A stretch of DNA of 43,224 nt from a virus, in the UHGV virus genome UHGV-0208947. One strand, written 5' to 3'. The notes under the pieces are model-generated. The model had not been told where the DNA came from, did not search any database, and saw only the letters and a program-made list of their open reading frames with translations. Positions 8,302 through 16,799 of the stretch are shown here, piece after piece. The position numbers and the translations under genes were made by a program. How positions within the stretch are numbered: position 1 is the first letter of the stretch; each line of letters opens with the position of its first letter.

Positions 8302-9606
8302 TTATTGACGATTAAAGTAGTTAGAGTTTAGCTCTTTAGGGAAGTAGTGTTTACGATTTACCCAAACAAATCCATCAACTTTTGATATCACAGCGACATC
8401 AACAGGCCCACCGACAGTTTCATAATCATGTGATACTTTTCTTTTGAATGCAGTGATGTTCACTAATGATTCGGCCATATACGCAAGATCTGCCTTCCCA
8501 AGTGATTGCAACATCGATATCATTTTATTTGTATGGTTATTAACAATATAGCTTTCAAGTTTAGTATCGTGATCTTGTAAAAGTACGTTTTTGAGTTCCT
8601 CAATTTCACTGGAGAAGTGATTGGCTAGTACTCCATTGTTCATTGCAGGGAAAATATTGCTAGAAACATAATGATTAAGCCGATCAAAAACTTCCTCTGT
8701 AAGAGTTCTGTTAAAATTAATGATGTTAGGGTTGCACCCATCAATGAAAGTTACTACTTCATCTTCTTGAGCAAATGGTATAACAAACCCCATATTGGTT
8801 ACCTTATTATGGGATTTATCATCAATATTATGGATCATCAATTTGTTTTTAAAAATGCCGTAGATATGAAGAGTGCAAATGGAAGGGTAATATTCTTCCT
8901 CTCCATAACCTGTTATAACAATCCCTGAATATGTACGACTAGCATGGACTTTGAAAATTAAACAAGTGGAATATAATATGACTTTTTCCATAAGCTCTTG
9001 CTGTATATTTTCACAGTTATCAAGAACAATAATTGATGAAATGTATGGCGATATTAAATCTTGTATATATGCTAAAGCATCATTAAACTCTTCTGTATCA
9101 AACCCTTCGAAAAAGAGATTATTCCTTAAGATTCCTATCTCTAAATCAAAGGCTTGCTTAACTATGTTTTGAAAAATAACATTGTCGAGTTCAACGGCGG
9201 GGTTCATTGTTAAATAGTTTACTACATTATTATCATTAATGTATCTCATCAAACCTTTGAGGTTATCAACAACAAGGTTTATAACGCAAGCCTCTCTCAT
9301 TTCATTTGTTATAAGGTCTGAGTTACCATTGATGAATTTTACAAAGTCATTAACATATTCTTTAATGGTAGGGAAACTAGTTTTCCCCAATTGTTTTCTA
9401 TAGGATTTAATTATAAGTTCCCACGGTGCGCCACCCAGTGTCGCATTATTATAAATCATGATCCCCACGGGATGGTGTTTAGATAGTTCGAATAGTTTTT
9501 CCGCACTATTATTTATTTTTACTAATCTATTATGCTCTGTGGTGACTGCAGAGTCAGCAGCAAGGGCGATTCCAGTATTATTTATTACAACAATCTCAGC
9601 TGTCAT
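8302..9606 (-). CDS. AT-rich accessory protein with HslV/proteasome-beta-like (Ntn hydrolase, threonine peptidase) signatures; candidate defence or abortive-infection gene in the rex position
   Basis: Minus-strand ORF co-oriented with and directly downstream of the repressor gene. The internal ATG at 9606-9604 gives MTAEIVVINNTGIALAADSAVTTEHNRLVKIN..., closely paralleling HslV [35 protein letters not shown] (Thr after Met, Asp about 17, Lys about 30). The C-terminus ...YETVGGPVDVAVISKVDGFVWV resembles the GSGG / D-x-x-S-G-G region of the same fold. About 300 residues of Asn/Ile/Lys-rich sequence lie between. The track ORF extends to an ATG at 9705 (467 aa); 434 aa from 9606. Confidence 0.6.
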   Translation of the reverse strand: MTAEIVVINNTGIALAADSAVTTEHNRLVKINNSAEKLFELSKHHPVGIMIYNNATLGGAPWELIIKSYRKQLGKTSFPTIKEYVNDFVKFINGNSDLITNEMREACVINLVVDNLKGLMRYINDNNVVNYLTMNPAVELDNVIFQNIVKQAFDLEIGILRNNLFFEGFDTEEFNDALAYIQDLISPYISSIIVLDNCENIQQELMEKVILYSTCLIFKVHASRTYSGIVITGYGEEEYYPSICTLHIYGIFKNKLMIHNIDDKSHNKVTNMGFVIPFAQEDEVVTFIDGCNPNIINFNRTLTEEVFDRLNHYVSSNIFPAMNNGVLANHFSSEIEELKNVLLQDHDTKLESYIVNNHTNKMISMLQSLGKADLAYMAESLVNITAFKRKVSHDYETVGGPVDVAVISKVDGFVWVNRKHYFPKELNSNYFNRQ

Positions 9607-9747
9607 TGCAAAACATCCCGTGTAGTAGTGATAAATATTAATTAAATTGATAGTTTTTTTCAATCTAACATAAATGGCGGAATCACCCCCCAGTAAAGAC
9701 ATCATTGTCTCATGGGAACTAAAAATTCAGGACAAACCTAAAGCGAT

Positions 9748-10134
9748 TCAGTCCCCCTGCGAGCGAATCCGCCCCTTCATGTACTTCTCATACAGCTCAT
9801 CCAGTTCCTTAAGACGTATCGAAAAGATGCGGAGCATGTTCTGTTGCTCTTCTTCTGGCAGCTGGCGGTAGAGCTCAAGCAGGCGCTGTTCGTCCGGCTT
9901 AAGTCCGTCCTTCTCGCCGACATCCTCACCGAGTAACCAAGGCACAGACACGCCAGCTGCGTCAGCGACAGCGAGAGCTGATTTCTTGCTGATCACGCCT
10001 TTTTTAAACCAGCCGTTCACAGACTGCGGGGTTACCCCAGCAACCCTGGCCATATCGGATTTGGTCATACCGCGCCCGTTCAGCTCTGAAAGGCGTTCGA
10101 CAAGTATCGGATTAAGTACGGTTTTCTCTTTCAT
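9748..10134 (-). CDS. Prophage repressor, DicA/CI-like HTH (XRE family) protein
   Basis: 128 aa; HTH MTKSDMARVAGVTPQSVNGWFKKG; C-terminal LLELYRQLPEEEQQNML resembles DicA; divergent from the cro-like gene with operator repeats between. Confidence 0.8.
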   Translation of the reverse strand: MKEKTVLNPILVERLSELNGRGMTKSDMARVAGVTPQSVNGWFKKGVISKKSALAVADAAGVSVPWLLGEDVGEKDGLKPDEQRLLELYRQLPEEEQQNMLRIFSIRLKELDELYEKYMKGRIRSQGD

Positions 10135-10193
10135 GGTTAGAAGAATAAGCCTTTTTCTTAAACTTGAAAATTCGCCTCAGGCTTGACAATAAA

Positions 10194-10210
10194 TTAAGTC
10201 TCAGGCTTAA
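10194..10210. promoter_or_regulatory. Candidate right operator (TTAAGTCTCAGGCTTAA) in the repressor/cro divergent promoter region, with -35-like TTGACA at 10183-10188
   Basis: 17-bp near-palindrome identical (as reverse complement) to 7980-7996; related half-sites CTCAGGCTT at 10176-10184 and AAGCCT at 10147-10152. Confidence 0.5.
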
Positions 10211-10238
10211 TTTGATTGTATTCAAATCGGAGACAACG

Positions 10239-10457
10239 ATGAACGGGTTAACGAAAGCCATTAAGTCCGCTGGCACTGCAACAAATCTCGCAACCATGCT
10301 GGGCATCAAGCCGATGTCGGTCAGCCGCTGGAAAAACCGGTACCAGGGCGTGGTGCCTGCTGATCGGGTCCTTCAAATCTACGCGGCTACCGGCGTAACT
10401 CCACACGAGCTGCGCCCTGATCTCTATCCAAACCCAAGTGACGGTTTACCAAAGTAA
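10239..10457 (+). CDS. Cro/YdaS-like small HTH regulator
   Basis: ATG at 10239 after GGAGA; MNGLTKAIKSAGTATNLATMLGIKPMSVSRWKNR... HTH; divergent from the repressor. Confidence 0.7.
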   Translation: MNGLTKAIKSAGTATNLATMLGIKPMSVSRWKNRYQGVVPADRVLQIYAATGVTPHELRPDLYPNPSDGLPK

Positions 10458-10468
10458 GGAATGTAACT

Positions 10469-11008
10469 ATGCAATCACTTACGTATCAACAGAGTAACGG
10501 GTTCATTTCAGCAGCGCTGATAAATCGCGCTCAACCAAAACCGGGCGTCAGTTGTGGTGCCCTCCGTGATGCTGTTCGCGCCTGGTCAGCAGTAGCCGGG
10601 CAGGACGTTGTAACGGCCCTGATCGTTGAAGAGTGGCACCGGATAGGTGGCGAAGGTATCGACTTTCCGGCAGATCACAGCCGTGCCCGGCAGAAGCTGT
10701 TCCGCTTCCTGGATAACCATTTCAACAGCGAACGGTACCGCGAGAACGTCCGCCAGCTGACGCCGGCAATCCTCGCTGTCCTGCCGATTGAATACCGCAA
10801 TCGTCTGCTACCAGAAGACAACGTAATGGCTCGTCTGGCAAGGCTGGAGAAGGAAACCAGCGAAGCGAAGATTGCTGTCGCAATGGATGCGCCACGTCAT
10901 CAGAAGCTGAAAGAGTTGAGCGAGGGGATCGTGGAGATGTATCGCGTTGACCCTGGGTTAACCGGTCCGTTGATGGAAATGGTGCAGATTATGCTGGGGG
11001 CTATATGA
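10469..11008 (+). CDS. CII/YdaT-like early regulatory protein (family uncertain)
   Basis: 179-aa ORF immediately after the cro-like gene, before the replication genes. Confidence 0.45.
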   Translation: MQSLTYQQSNGFISAALINRAQPKPGVSCGALRDAVRAWSAVAGQDVVTALIVEEWHRIGGEGIDFPADHSRARQKLFRFLDNHFNSERYRENVRQLTPAILAVLPIEYRNRLLPEDNVMARLARLEKETSEAKIAVAMDAPRHQKLKELSEGIVEMYRVDPGLTGPLMEMVQIMLGAI

Positions 11009-13387: not shown

Positions 13388-13520
13388 TACCACCGCCATT
13401 TCGTGCATTCTGTGGTTTCTATTACCCATTGCGTTAATGCTGTCCAATCATCAGCTCGCTGAGGCGCTGGTTAGGGCTAACCTACAGGAGCTTTGTCAGC
13501 AGAAACAAATAGCGGCGTAA
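13388..13520 (+). pseudogene. Second, frameshifted remnant of a C5-methyltransferase 3' end
   Basis: ...ITHCVNAV... then, in a shifted frame, ...LAEALVRANLQELCQQKQIAA stop; shares the exact 18-mer GAGCTTTGTCAGCAGAAA (13488-13505) with the first remnant (12900-12917). Confidence 0.35.
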
Positions 13521-13538
13521 TAAAACATCGCTAATTCA

Positions 13539-13567
13539 ACCCGCTACGGCGGGTTTTCTTTTTTTAC
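13539..13567 (+). terminator. Rho-independent terminator
   Basis: ACCCGC-TACG-GCGGGT hairpin followed by TTTTCTTTTTTT. Confidence 0.6.
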
Positions 13568-13627
13568 TACTGACAGAAAATTAACAATTTGTGCTCTTAA
13601 AGCGTTGATCATTTCCGCGCATAGGTA

Positions 13628-13647
13628 TACTGTATAAAAACACAGTA
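13628..13647. promoter_or_regulatory. LexA (SOS) box upstream of the DinI-like gene
   Basis: TACTGTATAAAAACACAGTA: CTGT-N8-ACAG with AT-rich centre, matching the E. coli LexA consensus; ends 18 nt before the dinI-like ATG. Confidence 0.6.
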
Positions 13648-13665
13648 AATGCAATGGGGGCCATT

Positions 13666-13899
13666 ATGAAAGTTGAATTAACCATTGATCGCATGAAAGA
13701 ACTTCCTAAAGGCGCAGTACCAGCACTGGAGAAAGAACTGCTTAAGCGCCTGAATGATCACTATGACAATTGCAGGCTCACAATCCGCCGTGCCGGGGCC
13801 GATGGGTTAAGTGTTTTTGGTGGTGACAAGGACGATAAAAAGAAAATTGAATCAATCCTCCAGGATACCTGGGAAAGCGCTGACGACTGGTTTTATTAG
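13666..13899 (+). CDS. dinI: DinI-family protein (DNA-damage-inducible protein I homologue)
   Basis: MKVELTIDRMKELPKGAVPALEKELLKRL...DKKKIESILQDTWESADDWFY parallels E. coli DinI including the C-terminal ...ILQETWESADDWF. Confidence 0.8.
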   Translation: MKVELTIDRMKELPKGAVPALEKELLKRLNDHYDNCRLTIRRAGADGLSVFGGDKDDKKKIESILQDTWESADDWFY

Positions 13900-14016
13900 A
13901 ATTGCGCTTAAGGCTGGCGCGCATTTTTCAGAATACCGCAATTTGCGTAACCCTCTGATGCTGCTGCCGACAATCTTTAATCGCGTCTGTTAGTCGCTCG
14001 AAGGGAGAACATAAAT

Positions 14017-14265
14017 GTGAGTGATTCAGCTTTGCAAACGTCAGAAGACAACTGGTATGACATTGTAAGAAGGTCTGACGGCTGCGTGGTGTTTAGCTTT
14101 CCTTCATCGGGCAGGCATCTAATTTATCGCGTCAATGGCATGGTTTCTATGCGGCCTTTGCTGGATGATGAAGAGGTCTTTACTCCTAATGGTTTTATGC
14201 AGTTTATTCACCGTCTCGGCTACCGGGTAACCCCACCTTCTGATAATATGAAATCAACGGTCTGA
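14017..14265 (+). CDS. Hypothetical protein
   Basis: 82-aa ORF with GTG start, AGGGAG upstream; no recognisable motif. Confidence 0.4.
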   Translation: MSDSALQTSEDNWYDIVRRSDGCVVFSFPSSGRHLIYRVNGMVSMRPLLDDEEVFTPNGFMQFIHRLGYRVTPPSDNMKSTV

Positions 14266-14299
14266 ACAACCGTAACCTACTGCGCCACGGAGAGAAACC

Positions 14300-14899
14300 A
14301 TGGCGCACGAACTACAACTCATCAAGCATTCCTCAGGAATCCTGATCCCCGCTACGCCGGAGACCAGTGATTTACTGCAATCAAAAATCAAACTCGGCTC
14401 CGTACTGGTGGCTGAGTTCCGGCAGGTACGCAACCCGGCCTTTCACCGTCGTTTCTTCGCGTTACTCAATCTCGGTTTCGAATACTGGGAACCCACCGGC
14501 GGGGCAATCTCCTCCAACGAACGCAAGCTGGTAACCGGCTATGCCAAGTTCCTTGCCTCATTCGCGGGAAGTGAAGCAGCACTCCTGGATGCTGCTGAGC
14601 AATATCTGGAGCGCATCGCCGATAAGCGTACTGGTAGCATCTGCGCCTGTAAGTCATTCGATGCATATCGTGCATGGGTCACTATTGAGTCCGGCCATTA
14701 CGACGCCATTCAGCTGCCTGACGGCACCCTCCGCAAACATCCCCGCAGTATCTCATTCGCAAATATGGATGAAACTGAGTTCCAGCAGCTGTACAAAGCC
14801 GCGCTCGATGTTCTGTGGCGATGGATACTCTCCCGATCATTTCGCAGTTGTGAAGAGGCAGAAAACGCCGCCGCCCAGCTGATGAGCTTTGCGGGGTGA
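14300..14899 (+). CDS. Hypothetical nin-region protein
   Basis: 199-aa ORF with ATG and GGAGAGA upstream; typical lambdoid nin-region position. Confidence 0.55.
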   Translation: MAHELQLIKHSSGILIPATPETSDLLQSKIKLGSVLVAEFRQVRNPAFHRRFFALLNLGFEYWEPTGGAISSNERKLVTGYAKFLASFAGSEAALLDAAEQYLERIADKRTGSICACKSFDAYRAWVTIESGHYDAIQLPDGTLRKHPRSISFANMDETEFQQLYKAALDVLWRWILSRSFRSCEEAENAAAQLMSFAG

Positions 14900-15890: not shown

Positions 15891-16673
15891 ATGAACCTTG
15901 AAAACACAGTGAAATACCACTTCGCTAAATCCACACTGATTAGCGATTCTCCGCGCGCTACCGCCTCCGATTCACTGACCGGTACCGACATAATGGCTGC
16001 CATGGGCATGACGCAGGAACGCGCCGCAATGGGTTACAGCGCCTTCCTCGGCAAGATGGGCATAAGCAATAACGACCGGGATCGGGCGATCGGTCTGCTG
16101 GCTGAGTACGCGATGACAAAATGCGACAAGGTTGCCGCACTGCGTAAGCTCGGTGCCGCGGTTAAACCTCAGGTGATGCACCAGTTGGCCACCTTCGCTT
16201 TTGAGGACTATTCCCGCAGCGCTGCCAGCGTGAAGCAGTGCGATTGTTGTGACGGTCAGGGCTTCATTGAGGCTGACGTATTTACCAATAAATTCCGTAA
16301 GCCAGAAGGGAAAATGACCGTGTCCGGGATGGTGAAGGTCAAAGAATCCATCAAAGTGCTATGCAAAAAGTGTAATGGCTCTGGTGTGGTTAGTGCTTCT
16401 TGCAGTGATTGCCATGGGCGCGGCAAGGCAGTGAACCAGGCTCTTACTGAGAAACAGGGCGTTCCTGTTCTGGCTGACTGTAAGCGCTGCGGAGGGCGTG
16501 GGTATGAACGACTTCCGTCGACTGAAGCCTATGCTGCTGTATGCCAGATTACTGACGCCATTAGCCTGGACACCTGGAAAAAGTCTGTTAAGCCATTCTA
16601 CGACCTGCTGATCACGAAATTTGATATCGAAGAGTCCTGGGCCGAAAAACAGCTTAAGCAGATAACGCGGTAA
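15891..16673 (+). CDS. Late-gene antiterminator Q-like protein with CxxCxGxG zinc-finger repeats
   Basis: 260-aa ORF between rusA and the lysis cassette; CDCCDGQG, CKKCNGSG, CSDCHGRG, CKRCGGRG repeats; call is mainly positional. Confidence 0.6.
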   Translation: MNLENTVKYHFAKSTLISDSPRATASDSLTGTDIMAAMGMTQERAAMGYSAFLGKMGISNNDRDRAIGLLAEYAMTKCDKVAALRKLGAAVKPQVMHQLATFAFEDYSRSAASVKQCDCCDGQGFIEADVFTNKFRKPEGKMTVSGMVKVKESIKVLCKKCNGSGVVSASCSDCHGRGKAVNQALTEKQGVPVLADCKRCGGRGYERLPSTEAYAAVCQITDAISLDTWKKSVKPFYDLLITKFDIEESWAEKQLKQITR

Positions 16674-16772
16674 CGCCTATAGCGATAGCCTATGATTTTG
16701 TCTTGGGCTATTTACTTTTCCCGAATCTGTGTTAATTTTGTCCCAACGATGGGTTAATGCCTTCGTTTCAAG

Positions 16773-16799
16773 CCCTGCGGATAACACCGTGGGGTTTTT
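16773..16799 (+). terminator. Candidate tR'-like terminator downstream of Q
   Basis: CCCTGCGG-ATAACA-CCGTGGGG hairpin (two G-U pairs) followed by TTTTT. Confidence 0.4.

Follow-up and report, generated by a model that had tools for sequence, protein, structure and literature searches.

We consider it highly probable that the LexA box at positions 13628-13647 of the window, the whole 43,224-nucleotide stretch of virus genome UHGV-0208947 analyzed here, functions as a LexA operator at the promoter of an SOS operon of three genes (dinI, a GfoA-type antirepressor gene and an irsA/DUF1367 gene) that induces the prophage carrying it. The carrier is an E. coli prophage, lambdoid and Gifsy-like. Its features run in the order terminator, LexA box, dinI, 82-aa GTG-start ORF and DUF1367/irsA homologue (Table 1), a predicted layout already known from the LexA-controlled induction operon of the Gifsy prophages in Salmonella (Lemire et al. 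2011). The operon is outside the immunity region, separated from the repressor gene on its left by 3.5 kb.

Table 1. Coordinates of the predicted operon features and of the repressor gene in the window.
Feature	Coordinates	Strand	Details
Prophage repressor gene, 128 aa, GfoR/GfhR/DicA-type	9748..10134	-	HTH_3 domain only
Intrinsic terminator	13538..13565	+	Stem AACCCGC/GCGGGTT, 7 pairs (5 G-C), then TTCTTTTTTT
Putative promoter PdinI	13605..13631	+	-35 TTGATC 13605-13610, 15-nt spacer, -10 TATACT 13626-13631
dinI homologue, 77 aa, operon gene 1	13666..13899	+	Pfam DinI PF06183
dinI-antirepressor leader, 117 nt	13900..14016	+	Weak hairpin and T-run 13903-13921; GGGAG Shine-Dalgarno 14003-14007
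Putative GfoA-family antirepressor gene, 82 aa, GTG start	14017..14265	+	Between dinI and the irsA homologue
irsA homologue (DUF1367), 199 aa, operon gene 3	14300..14899	+	Pfam DUF1367 6.2e-93

By analogy with experiments on the Gifsy homologues, LexA would bind the box and the genes of the operon would be transcribed together. A promoter scan between dinI and the 82-aa ORF found no promoter-like site, and no intrinsic terminator was found from dinI to the end of the gene for the antiterminator Q, located at 15891-16673. The hairpin in the leader is built from 6 pairs, including 4 G-C pairs, and could limit read-through past dinI; the Gifsy-2 leader, which is ~90% identical, permits read-through. 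The segment 13855-13999, comprising the end of dinI and most of the leader, is ~90% identical to both Gifsy-1 and Gifsy-2 DNA, and the leader is common to GfoA-type and GftA-type operons. A structured RNA or attenuator in the leader was considered and rejected: shuffled versions of the window leader fold about as well as the leader itself (z = 0.36), and RNAalifold on 15 diverse leaders returned just 4 invariant pairs and zero covariation. The third gene is 85% identical to Gifsy-1 STM2620, named an irsA homologue by Lemire et al. (PMC3121763).

The first gene is preceded by a GGGGG Shine-Dalgarno sequence at 13656-13660. The program-listed ORF begins at an in-frame ATG at 13654; since this codon overlaps the Shine-Dalgarno sequence and its equivalent runs into a stop in the Gifsy homologues, 13666 is taken as the true start. 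The 77-aa DinI-family product, which ends ...QDTWESADDWFY, matches Pfam PF06183 (3.8e-26, 91.6 bits against a cut-off of 24.2) and the sequence of the solved E. coli DinI structure 1GHH (E = 9.5e-18). The acidic C-terminal helix, the RecA-interacting surface, is nearly identical in the two proteins (ILQDTWESADDWF in the window versus ILQETWESADDWF in 1GHH). The initial annotation was right that the product parallels DinI, C-terminus included, and that the setting is a prophage; the alignment with chromosomal DinI that it proposed gives 47% identity, and identity to the Gifsy-1 DinI homologue is 66%. Because the window protein scores 91.4 bits against NF007893, the NCBIfam equivalog for chromosomal DinI, below the cut-off of 111, we place it in a phage subfamily paralogous to chromosomal DinI. 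The two genes share PF06183 membership, an upstream LexA box and the acidic helix, but chromosomal E. coli dinI is monocistronic whereas the window dinI would head a phage induction operon, and their identity goes no higher than the value given above.

Non-polar dinI deletions in Gifsy-1 and Gifsy-3 caused no significant change in induction level or rate (PMC3121763), which makes it unlikely that the LexA box governs essentially dinI alone, with the phage DinI modulating RecA filaments and so tuning induction of its own or co-resident prophages. The box and the DinI homology are real, the RecA-interacting helix is conserved, the hairpin and T-run just after dinI could end a monocistronic transcript, and the position of dinI, retained in 116 related loci, argues for a selected function. 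Against this, Gifsy induction is determined by the ORF 3′ of dinI, transcribed from the dinI promoter (PMC3121763, PMC5322425); no promoter-like site was found in the window between dinI and the 82-aa ORF; and the repressor has no S24 domain, so that RecA co-protease activity would not be the direct trigger. The initial annotation had proposed an SOS-induced RecA modulator that could tune prophage induction. SOS control is very likely, because nalidixic acid raises the expression of homologous Gifsy dinI genes, whose boxes have equal geometry, 4.6- to 23-fold (PMC8072944), but tuning through DinI and RecA is an unsupported mechanism, given the Gifsy deletions and a repressor without an autocleavage domain. 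The action on co-resident prophages that it attributed to dinI most likely belongs to the neighboring 82-aa ORF; its reading had stopped at the dinI stop codon and missed the second gene of the operon, the GfoA-type antirepressor.

The 82-aa ORF has its Shine-Dalgarno sequence 9 nt 5′ of the GTG. A non-ATG start codon is shared by gftA, gfoA and gfhA (PMC3121763) and was found in the GfoA- and GftA-type loci examined; the arrangement dinI, small ORF, irsA is likewise present in related loci. The protein is identical at 74/82 positions (~90%) to an SEN34/L151-type protein; the gfoA primers from the literature match the gene of this protein at 20/20 nt (5′) and 37/40 nt (3′). Its termini (VSDSALQ...HRLGYRVTPPSD) match those of GfoA (MSNSALQ...RRLGYRVTPPSD), a comparison made with the primer-encoded ends from the published primer table, the 3′ primer being off the nearest locus by 3/40 nt. 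From these matches we infer that the ORF encodes a GfoA-family antirepressor and is the candidate induction effector.

The assignment rests on the GfoA branch because homology to GftA is weak: BLASTP of the ORF against LT2 GftA is not significant (E = 0.98), and hhalign of the window-ORF and GftA subfamily profiles gives E = 0.002 with a probability of 13.5%. A BLAST link between the window ORF and GftA in single-linkage clustering was discarded as an artefact of the conserved leader being translated ahead of the true start codon. Rem, which Qin encodes as an antirepressor of DicA, was also tried as a relative and showed no detectable profile similarity (hhalign E = 0.36). No Pfam, NCBIfam or PADLOC model matches the ORF, and PADLOC also had no match for the 467-aa, 78-aa or 116-aa ORFs. 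An AlphaFold model of modest confidence (mean pLDDT 69, core ~81-85) has four strands and a helix; Foldseek found no significant match for it in the PDB (best E = 2.6), and neither did a profile search against the PDB.

The probable target of this antirepressor, on the model of experiments with the Gifsy homologues, is the 128-aa repressor, whose gene is divergent to a YdaS-type cro-like gene (~10239-10457) and a YdaT-type gene (10469-11008). A Pfam search of the repressor found no Peptidase_S24 (autocleavage) domain, and a protein of this length lacking that domain does not fit induction through a self-cleaving repressor of the lambda CI/LexA type. Both of its ends are GfoR-like (MKEKT...EKYMKGRIRSQGD in the window versus MKEKTHQ...EKYMKGRIRTRED in primer-derived GfoR). 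Overall identity is 81% to SEN34_43, 78% to mEp237 gp39, 29% to DicA (BLASTP E = 4e-12) and 25% to Gifsy-2 GtgR.

Antirepressor and repressor subtypes co-vary. The antirepressor subtype fits the repressor subtype in 64/65 loci, a count that includes related phages and hence not independent events: GfoA-type antirepressors, the window's among them, occur with GfoR-type repressors in 55/56 loci, GftA-type with GtgR-type in 6/6 and a third type in 3/3. This pairing holds across 0.5-9 kb of variable DNA between the two genes and lends indirect support to the predicted binding of the repressor by the antirepressor. The 24 unique repressors paired with GfoA-like antirepressors are 81% identical to the window's in the C-terminal half and 62% in the DNA-binding half, and a C-terminal half of the window type accompanies GfoA-like antirepressors in 31/31 loci.

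That invariable association makes it very unlikely that the module is SOS-induced but a mere passenger, either mismatched to its repressor or carried by a defective prophage, so that no induction follows. Lambdoid phages are mosaic, and phage mEp237 (gp48-gp50, NC_019704) illustrates the point: its DNA is 98.8% identical over 13400-14394, with DinI identical and the 82-aa protein 99% identical, yet its immunity region differs and holds a tandem pair of GfoR-like repressor genes (gp38, gp39). A mismatch does occur in the lone exception to the pairing (locus L105), where the antirepressor stands with the 'wrong' repressor type, and a single SNP can be enough to silence a module of this kind, as seen for Gifsy-1 in strain D23580 (PMC5322425). 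In mEp237, however, it is the repressor N-terminus that diverges, while the C-terminus is nearly identical. In the window the LexA box, the Shine-Dalgarno sites and the three ORFs are all intact, and many E. coli genomes carry the module at 100% identity. GfoA and GfhA are reported to act on the heteroimmune repressors GfoR and GfhR.

The predicted LexA operator itself, TACTGTATAAAAACACAGTA, lies at the position and at the distance from the gene, 18 nt from the end of the box to the dinI ATG, that the initial annotation had given. Measured against the gammaproteobacterial LexA box, a 20-bp palindrome TACTGT-(AT)4-ACAGTA in which CTG/CAG is invariant, it matches 17/20 consensus positions, and both of its arms, TACTGT and ACAGTA, are perfect. 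No other site in the window comes within three mismatches of TACTGTATAAAAACACAGTA or of the consensus TACTGTATATATATACAGTA, and such a match arose in 0/100 dinucleotide-preserving shuffles of the window. The looser core CTGT-N8-ACAG occurs twice (0.6 expected), the second copy, at 9001-9016, falling within an AT-rich ORF. Among the 160 related loci, we scored the pattern CTG[TG]-N8-[AC]CAG ending 17-24 nt 5′ of the dinI ATG, and it was present in all 107 that have upstream sequence. The central 8 nt of the box vary among these loci (~27 distinct 16-mers). Although the looser core is expected 0.6 times per window by chance and its second copy is in coding sequence, the notion of a chance palindrome without a regulatory role in AT-rich promoter DNA is effectively refuted by this conservation of position while spacer and flanks diverge, together with the shuffle result and the experimental LexA dependence of homologous boxes (PMC3121763, PMC8072944).

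The -10 element of the putative promoter PdinI overlaps the left arm of the box. In an alignment of 88 upstream regions, TTGA and TATACT are each at least 90% conserved. A consensus promoter scan requiring a 16-18 nt spacer called no sigma-70 promoter at this position, and the hexamers were assigned by manual reading of the sequence together with the 88-region alignment. The spacer length of the promoter so read is unusual. Gifsy-1 loses its induction through one SNP in the -10 region of PdinI-gfoA (PMC5322425). Of the 88 unique upstream regions, most retain the upstream terminator, and a similar terminator precedes all Gifsy dinI LexA boxes (Lemire et al. 2011, PMC3121763); we propose that it may shield the SOS operon from upstream early-right transcription.

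In an undamaged cell, LexA would sit on the box overlapping the -10 element and the terminator would stop read-in, leaving the operon silent. Upon DNA damage, RecA would become active, LexA would cleave itself and the operon would be transcribed. The antirepressor, probably kept scarce through its GTG start, would bind the short non-cleavable GfoR-like repressor and strip it off its operators in the 10135-10240 region, releasing the lytic programme. DinI would be co-induced and would probably bind RecA filaments. Since such antirepressors act on related heteroimmune repressors, this one could also induce co-resident prophages having GfoR-type repressors. These steps follow the experimental record of the Gifsy phages: replacing the LexA-box promoter of Gifsy-2 with PBAD makes induction dependent on arabinose, gftA or gfoA alone suffices to induce the prophage, and the antirepressor causes both induction and cross-induction of co-resident prophages (PMC3121763).

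The nearest known systems are the PdinI-gfoA operon of Gifsy-1 (ATCC 14028) and the gfhA operon of Gifsy-3 (Lemire, Figueroa-Bossi and Bossi 2011; Owen et al. 2017). They share with the window the terminator, a LexA box ~19 nt from the ATG, dinI, a non-ATG antirepressor gene and irsA/DUF1367, as well as a short non-cleavable HTH repressor with GfoR-like termini and a RecE/RecT left arm. The window differs from them in several respects. Its host is E. coli rather than Salmonella, and it is known from sequence alone; its antirepressor starts with GTG instead of TTG and, compared with the closest protein encoded by a gene that fits the gfoA primers, shows ~90% identity and not 100%. The N-terminal DNA-binding half of the repressor also differs, which points to a different immunity, and the cro/cII equivalents are of YdaS/YdaT type, unlike those of Gifsy-1 and Gifsy-3.

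The dinI-gftA operon of Gifsy-2 and LT2 Gifsy-1 has a layout identical to that of the window, with the box TACTGTGTTTATATACAGTG, and its DinI and IrsA are 66% and 85% identical to the window proteins. Its antirepressor GftA (73 aa) is of the other subtype, with 25% identity to the window ORF, and pairs with a GtgR-type repressor. A further likeness is found in Tum of coliphage 186, which is also a LexA-controlled, DinI-associated antirepressor that inactivates a non-cleavable repressor (PMC3121763). Tum is a fusion with the antirepressor part ahead of the DinI-like part, whereas the window has separate genes in the reverse order; tum is split in PSP3 and Fels-2. The PHROG DinI family profile spans 151 positions, of which the window DinI covers just 71-148.

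Another reading, which we regard as unlikely, is that the leader and the start codon act as a LexA-gated timing device setting the DinI-to-antirepressor ratio and with it the induction threshold, with DinI feedback and read-through into Q. It is suggested by the strongly conserved leader shared by otherwise unalignable GfoA- and GftA-type cassettes, the non-ATG starts and the lack of a terminator up to the end of Q. DinI feedback on RecA* might lengthen or shorten the LexA-free window, and read-through from PdinI might supply Q independently of the immunity region. Such timing-device features are described for none of the Gifsy phages.

The module was found in 52/5426 complete E. coli genomes. 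In RefSeq E. coli genomes and in phage records, GfoA and GftA antirepressors go by 'hypothetical protein', as does mEp237 gp49. These families are experimentally defined, have no Pfam or NCBIfam model and are of 'unknown function' in PHROGs, which is also the label on the PHROG families of the 82-aa ORF. As a consequence of this annotation gap, readers and pipelines see only a LexA box and DinI, and assign the locus a wrong function. The E. coli prophage described here is most likely induced through SOS-driven antirepression and not through repressor self-cleavage, a biology already established for the Salmonella Gifsy phages. If antirepression holds, induction would be reversible in principle and cross-induction of prophages with GfoR-type repressors would be possible, both of which bear on prophage dynamics under DNA-damaging antibiotics.

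The initial annotation had placed a consensus LexA box 18 nt before a DinI-like gene, which proved right in every detail. No site in the 43-kb window other than the 20-mer TACTGTATAAAAACACAGTA at 13628-13647 comes within three mismatches of that 20-mer or of the LexA consensus TACTGTATATATATACAGTA, and none of 100 dinucleotide-preserving shuffles contained a matching site. The looser core CTGT-N8-ACAG was observed twice in the window (0.6 expected). The likeness to DinI, C-terminal helix included, was borne out by matches to the Pfam DinI family (PF06183, 3.8e-26, 91.6 bits, cut-off 24.2) and to the solved E. coli DinI structure (1GHH, 9.5e-18). Alignment with chromosomal E. coli DinI gave 47% identity, with the acidic C-terminal helix ILQDTWESADDWF nearly unaltered; identity to the Gifsy-1 DinI homologue is 66%. 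As the protein scores 91.4 bits against the NCBIfam chromosomal DinI equivalog, under its cut-off of 111, we assign it to a phage subfamily. It is probably SOS-induced and capable of binding RecA.

Features of the dinI region and its surroundings in the window
Feature	Position	Strand	Details
RecT and 1003-aa RecE-like exonuclease genes			farther left than the repressor gene
467-aa ORF	8302-9705	minus	immediately 3′ of the repressor gene; corresponds in position to lambda rexAB
Repressor gene	9748-10134	minus	128 aa; divergent from cro-like gene; HTH_3 the only domain
Replication O and P genes, YdaT-type gene, YdaS-type (cro-like) gene			left of the dinI module
Strong intrinsic terminator	13538-13565		upstream of the LexA box
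Putative dinI promoter (PdinI)			best reading: −35 TTGATC, 15-nt spacer, −10 TATACT; −10 overlaps left arm of the box
LexA box	13628-13647		ends 18 bases before the dinI ATG (13666)
dinI homologue	13666-13899		77 codons; ATG start; GGGGG Shine-Dalgarno (13656-13660) 5 nt before ATG
Leader	13900-14016		117 nt, between dinI and the 82-codon ORF
82-codon ORF	14017-14265	plus	GTG start, preceded by GGGAG
irsA homologue (DUF1367)	14300-14899		199 aa
YbcO-like, RusA, YlcG-like and Q antiterminator genes			downstream of the DUF1367 gene, in this order; Q at 15891-16673
First intrinsic terminator past the weak hairpin after dinI	16770-16797	plus	just beyond the Q gene

To compare related loci, we fetched 80 genomic loci with the DUF1367 gene as anchor and 80 viral contigs with dinI as anchor. 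A dinI homologue was present in 116 loci, nine of which begin at dinI; all 107 with upstream sequence carry a box (CTG[TG]-N8-[AC]CAG) ending 17-24 nt 5′ of the ATG, where a random match within 105 positions is expected in less than 1% per locus. Since these boxes comprise about 27 distinct 16-mers, the half-sites are preserved while spacer and flanks drift. The promoter scanner made no call at PdinI, and its hexamers therefore count as inferred. Just 5′ of the putative −35, a block (TTAACAATTTGTGCTCTTAAAGC, 13581-13603) is kept in most of 88 distinct upstream regions, divergent ones included (for example GCATTTTGTGCGCTTAAAAC), and may serve as an UP element, as a further promoter or as the binding site of another regulator.

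The order of these elements is that of a characterized Salmonella system. Induction of prophages Gifsy-1, -2 and -3 does not proceed via repressor cleavage but requires a LexA-repressed locus that lies some 1.3 kb past the replication genes and outside the immunity region. Behind a terminator-like palindrome, this locus has a LexA box followed by dinI and irsA homologues, with a small ORF of non-canonical start codon between the two (Lemire, Figueroa-Bossi, Bossi, PLoS Genet 2011, PMC3121763). Expression of the small ORF alone, which encodes the antirepressors GftA, GfoA and GfhA, suffices to induce, and PBAD in place of the LexA-box promoter renders induction arabinose-dependent (PMC3121763). 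The antirepressor binds the short repressor in a stable complex and takes it off DNA, and both GfoA and GfhA target the heteroimmune repressors GfoR and GfhR (PMC3121763). Gifsy-1 of strain D23580 cannot be induced, owing to a single SNP in the PdinI-gfoA −10 region (Owen et al. 2017, PMC5322425). Nalidixic acid induces the three Gifsy dinI genes 23-, 14- and 4.6-fold; in each, a single box (heterology index 3.9-5.3) lies 19 bp from the ATG (Mérida-Floriano et al. 2021, PMC8072944).

The 82-codon ORF has no Pfam match, and BLASTP found no similarity to LT2 GftA. A global alignment with GftA gave a common pattern at 25% identity, and a profile-profile comparison (E = 0.002, probability only 13.5%) is suggestive only. 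The decisive link, to GfoA, lies in the primer table of PMC3121763: PBAD-gfoA encodes M-S-N-S-A-L-Q-K and gfoA::3xFLAG encodes ...R-R-L-G-Y-R-V-T-P-P-S-D-I, and the window ORF begins V-S-D-S-A-L-Q-T... and ends ...H-R-L-G-Y-R-V-T-P-P-S-D-N-M-K-S-T-V. The gfoA 5′ primer is exact in four fetched loci (phage SEN34 and three IMG/VR contigs), where the 3′ primer matches at 37/40 nt, and the bridging protein from these loci is identical to the window ORF at 74/82 positions. GfoR termini from the same table (MKEKTHQ... and ...EKYMKGRIRTRED) are paralleled in the window repressor (MKEKTVLN... and ...EKYMKGRIRSQGD), which has 29% identity to DicA (4e-12) and in which no S24 peptidase domain was found. 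Primer-encoded termini, bridging protein and repressor termini together place the window ORF in the GfoA antirepressor family and the window repressor in the GfoR family. Rem, the Qin antirepressor, was rejected as a relative for want of similarity; a structure model of the window antirepressor (pLDDT 69) had neither a fold nor a sequence match in the PDB, and PADLOC gave no hit.

Across the fetched loci the ORFs 3′ of dinI sort into a few families, and these co-vary with the repressor. Where the repressor lay inside the fetched flank, antirepressors related to the window ORF and GfoA accompany GfoR-type repressors in 55/56 loci (L105 being the exception), GftA-type accompany GtgR-type in 6/6, and a third antirepressor type a third repressor type in 3/3; these counts take in related phages, so the events are not independent. 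Variable cargo of 0.5-9 kb separates the two genes. The 24 distinct repressors found alongside GfoA-like antirepressors average 62% identity to that of the window in the DNA-binding half and 81% in the C-terminal half; where the partner is the sister antirepressor subtype, the repressors reach 32% and 40%. In coliphage mEp237 the antirepressor is 99% identical to that of the window, and the repressor is diverged at the N-terminus but nearly identical at the C-terminus, a pattern mirroring the published action of GfoA and GfhA on the heteroimmune GfoR and GfhR (PMC3121763).

The window represents a Rac/Gifsy-type lambdoid prophage. Positions 13400-14394 are 98.8% identical to mEp237, in which the module genes are annotated as DinI (gp48), hypothetical protein (gp49) and 'NinB/Orf' (gp50). 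Among 5426 complete E. coli genomes, 52 carry the stretch 13530-14300, always on the chromosome and with ≥99% identity in 45 of the 52; its annotation there reads 'hypothetical protein | DinI family protein | DUF1367 family protein'. The match to Salmonella phage SEN34 spans the entire module at 86%, and those to Gifsy-1 and Gifsy-2, at about 90%, span the dinI end and most of the leader. Contigs labelled Sphingomonas sp. NPDC019816 (L024) and Streptomyces sp. NPDC002677 (L060) carry an enterobacterial-type dinI-antirepressor-DUF1367 module nearly identical to that of Serratia montpellierensis (L025), and are probably contaminants in those assemblies. The DUF1367 protein, known in the literature as the irsA homologue, is 85% identical to its Gifsy-1 counterpart. 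In RefSeq phage records and in PHROGs (phrog_319) it goes under 'NinB/Orf homologous recombination mediator', as do its counterparts in mEp237 (L001 6901-7500) and SEN34 (L005 7811-8413); the Pfam match to DUF1367 (6e-93) gives that label no support.

The leader (also at L002 3037-3153 and in about 25 other loci) is kept between otherwise unalignable GfoA- and GftA-type antirepressor genes. Directly 5′ of the Shine-Dalgarno, GCGTC-N5-GTCGCTC is almost invariant, and the examined loci of GfoA and GftA type start the antirepressor with GTG or TTG. Neither a thermodynamically stable fold nor covariation was found in the leader, which may serve translational control or be a mere recombination joint for cassette exchange.

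The 467-aa ORF has a GC content of 31-35%, against about 50% in its flanks. It had no match in Pfam, NCBIfam or PADLOC, its sole match being phrog_5990 (unknown function, 3.7e-178), and may be a moron or a defence gene. In its place mEp237 and SEN34 have a second GfoR-like repressor paralogue, so that each carries two tandem genes (gp38/gp39, L001 1235-2114; SEN34_42/43, L005 462-1274) where the window has one; these are 52-57% identical to each other's counterparts, with similar C-terminal halves. Within the ORF lies a second LexA-like palindrome (TGCTGTATATTTTCACAGTT, 8999-9018) with a perfect CTGT-N8-ACAG core and five mismatches to the 20-mer consensus, which resembles the lexA gene's own operator. 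The site may be fortuitous, given its mid-coding position, the low GC and an expectation of 0.6 cores in the window; alternatively, it could flag an SOS-regulated start inside the ORF.

The analysis directly shows the features of the sequence, the families of its products, conservation and co-variation; the best supported mechanism, drawn from homology, has four steps. LexA bound to its box would block the promoter, SOS induction would take LexA away, dinI, the antirepressor gene and the irsA homologue would be transcribed jointly, and the antirepressor would inactivate the non-cleavable repressor. A promoter scan found no promoter-like site between dinI and the antirepressor gene; the window leader shares about 90% identity with the leader of Gifsy-2, in which PBAD placed at dinI drives induction by read-through (PMC3121763). 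A consensus scan found no plus-strand intrinsic terminator between 13921 (the weak hairpin after dinI) and the one beyond Q, so PdinI transcripts might pass the irsA homologue, ybcO, rusA and ylcG; considering intrinsic termination alone, read-through from the LexA-controlled promoter into Q could in principle occur.

This kind of system is already known, and conservation of such operons in Escherichia prophages has been explicitly reported (PMC3121763); the window copy is an uncharacterised member with a near-identical copy sequenced in mEp237. The GfoA and GftA families have no Pfam or NCBIfam model, are of 'unknown function' in PHROGs (phrog_340, phrog_1813, phrog_4847), and all 37 database homologues are unnamed, hypothetical or uncharacterized. 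The practical point is this missing annotation in Pfam, NCBIfam and PHROGs. The initial annotation had proposed that an SOS-induced DinI could tune prophage induction, a reading that is partly supported: the SOS-regulated DinI homologue is real, but the sole experimental evidence on dinI is that non-polar deletion of dinI, as of irsA, did not significantly alter induction in the Gifsy phages (PMC3121763). The adjacent antirepressor, which had been overlooked, is the element most likely to tune the induction of this prophage or of its co-residents.
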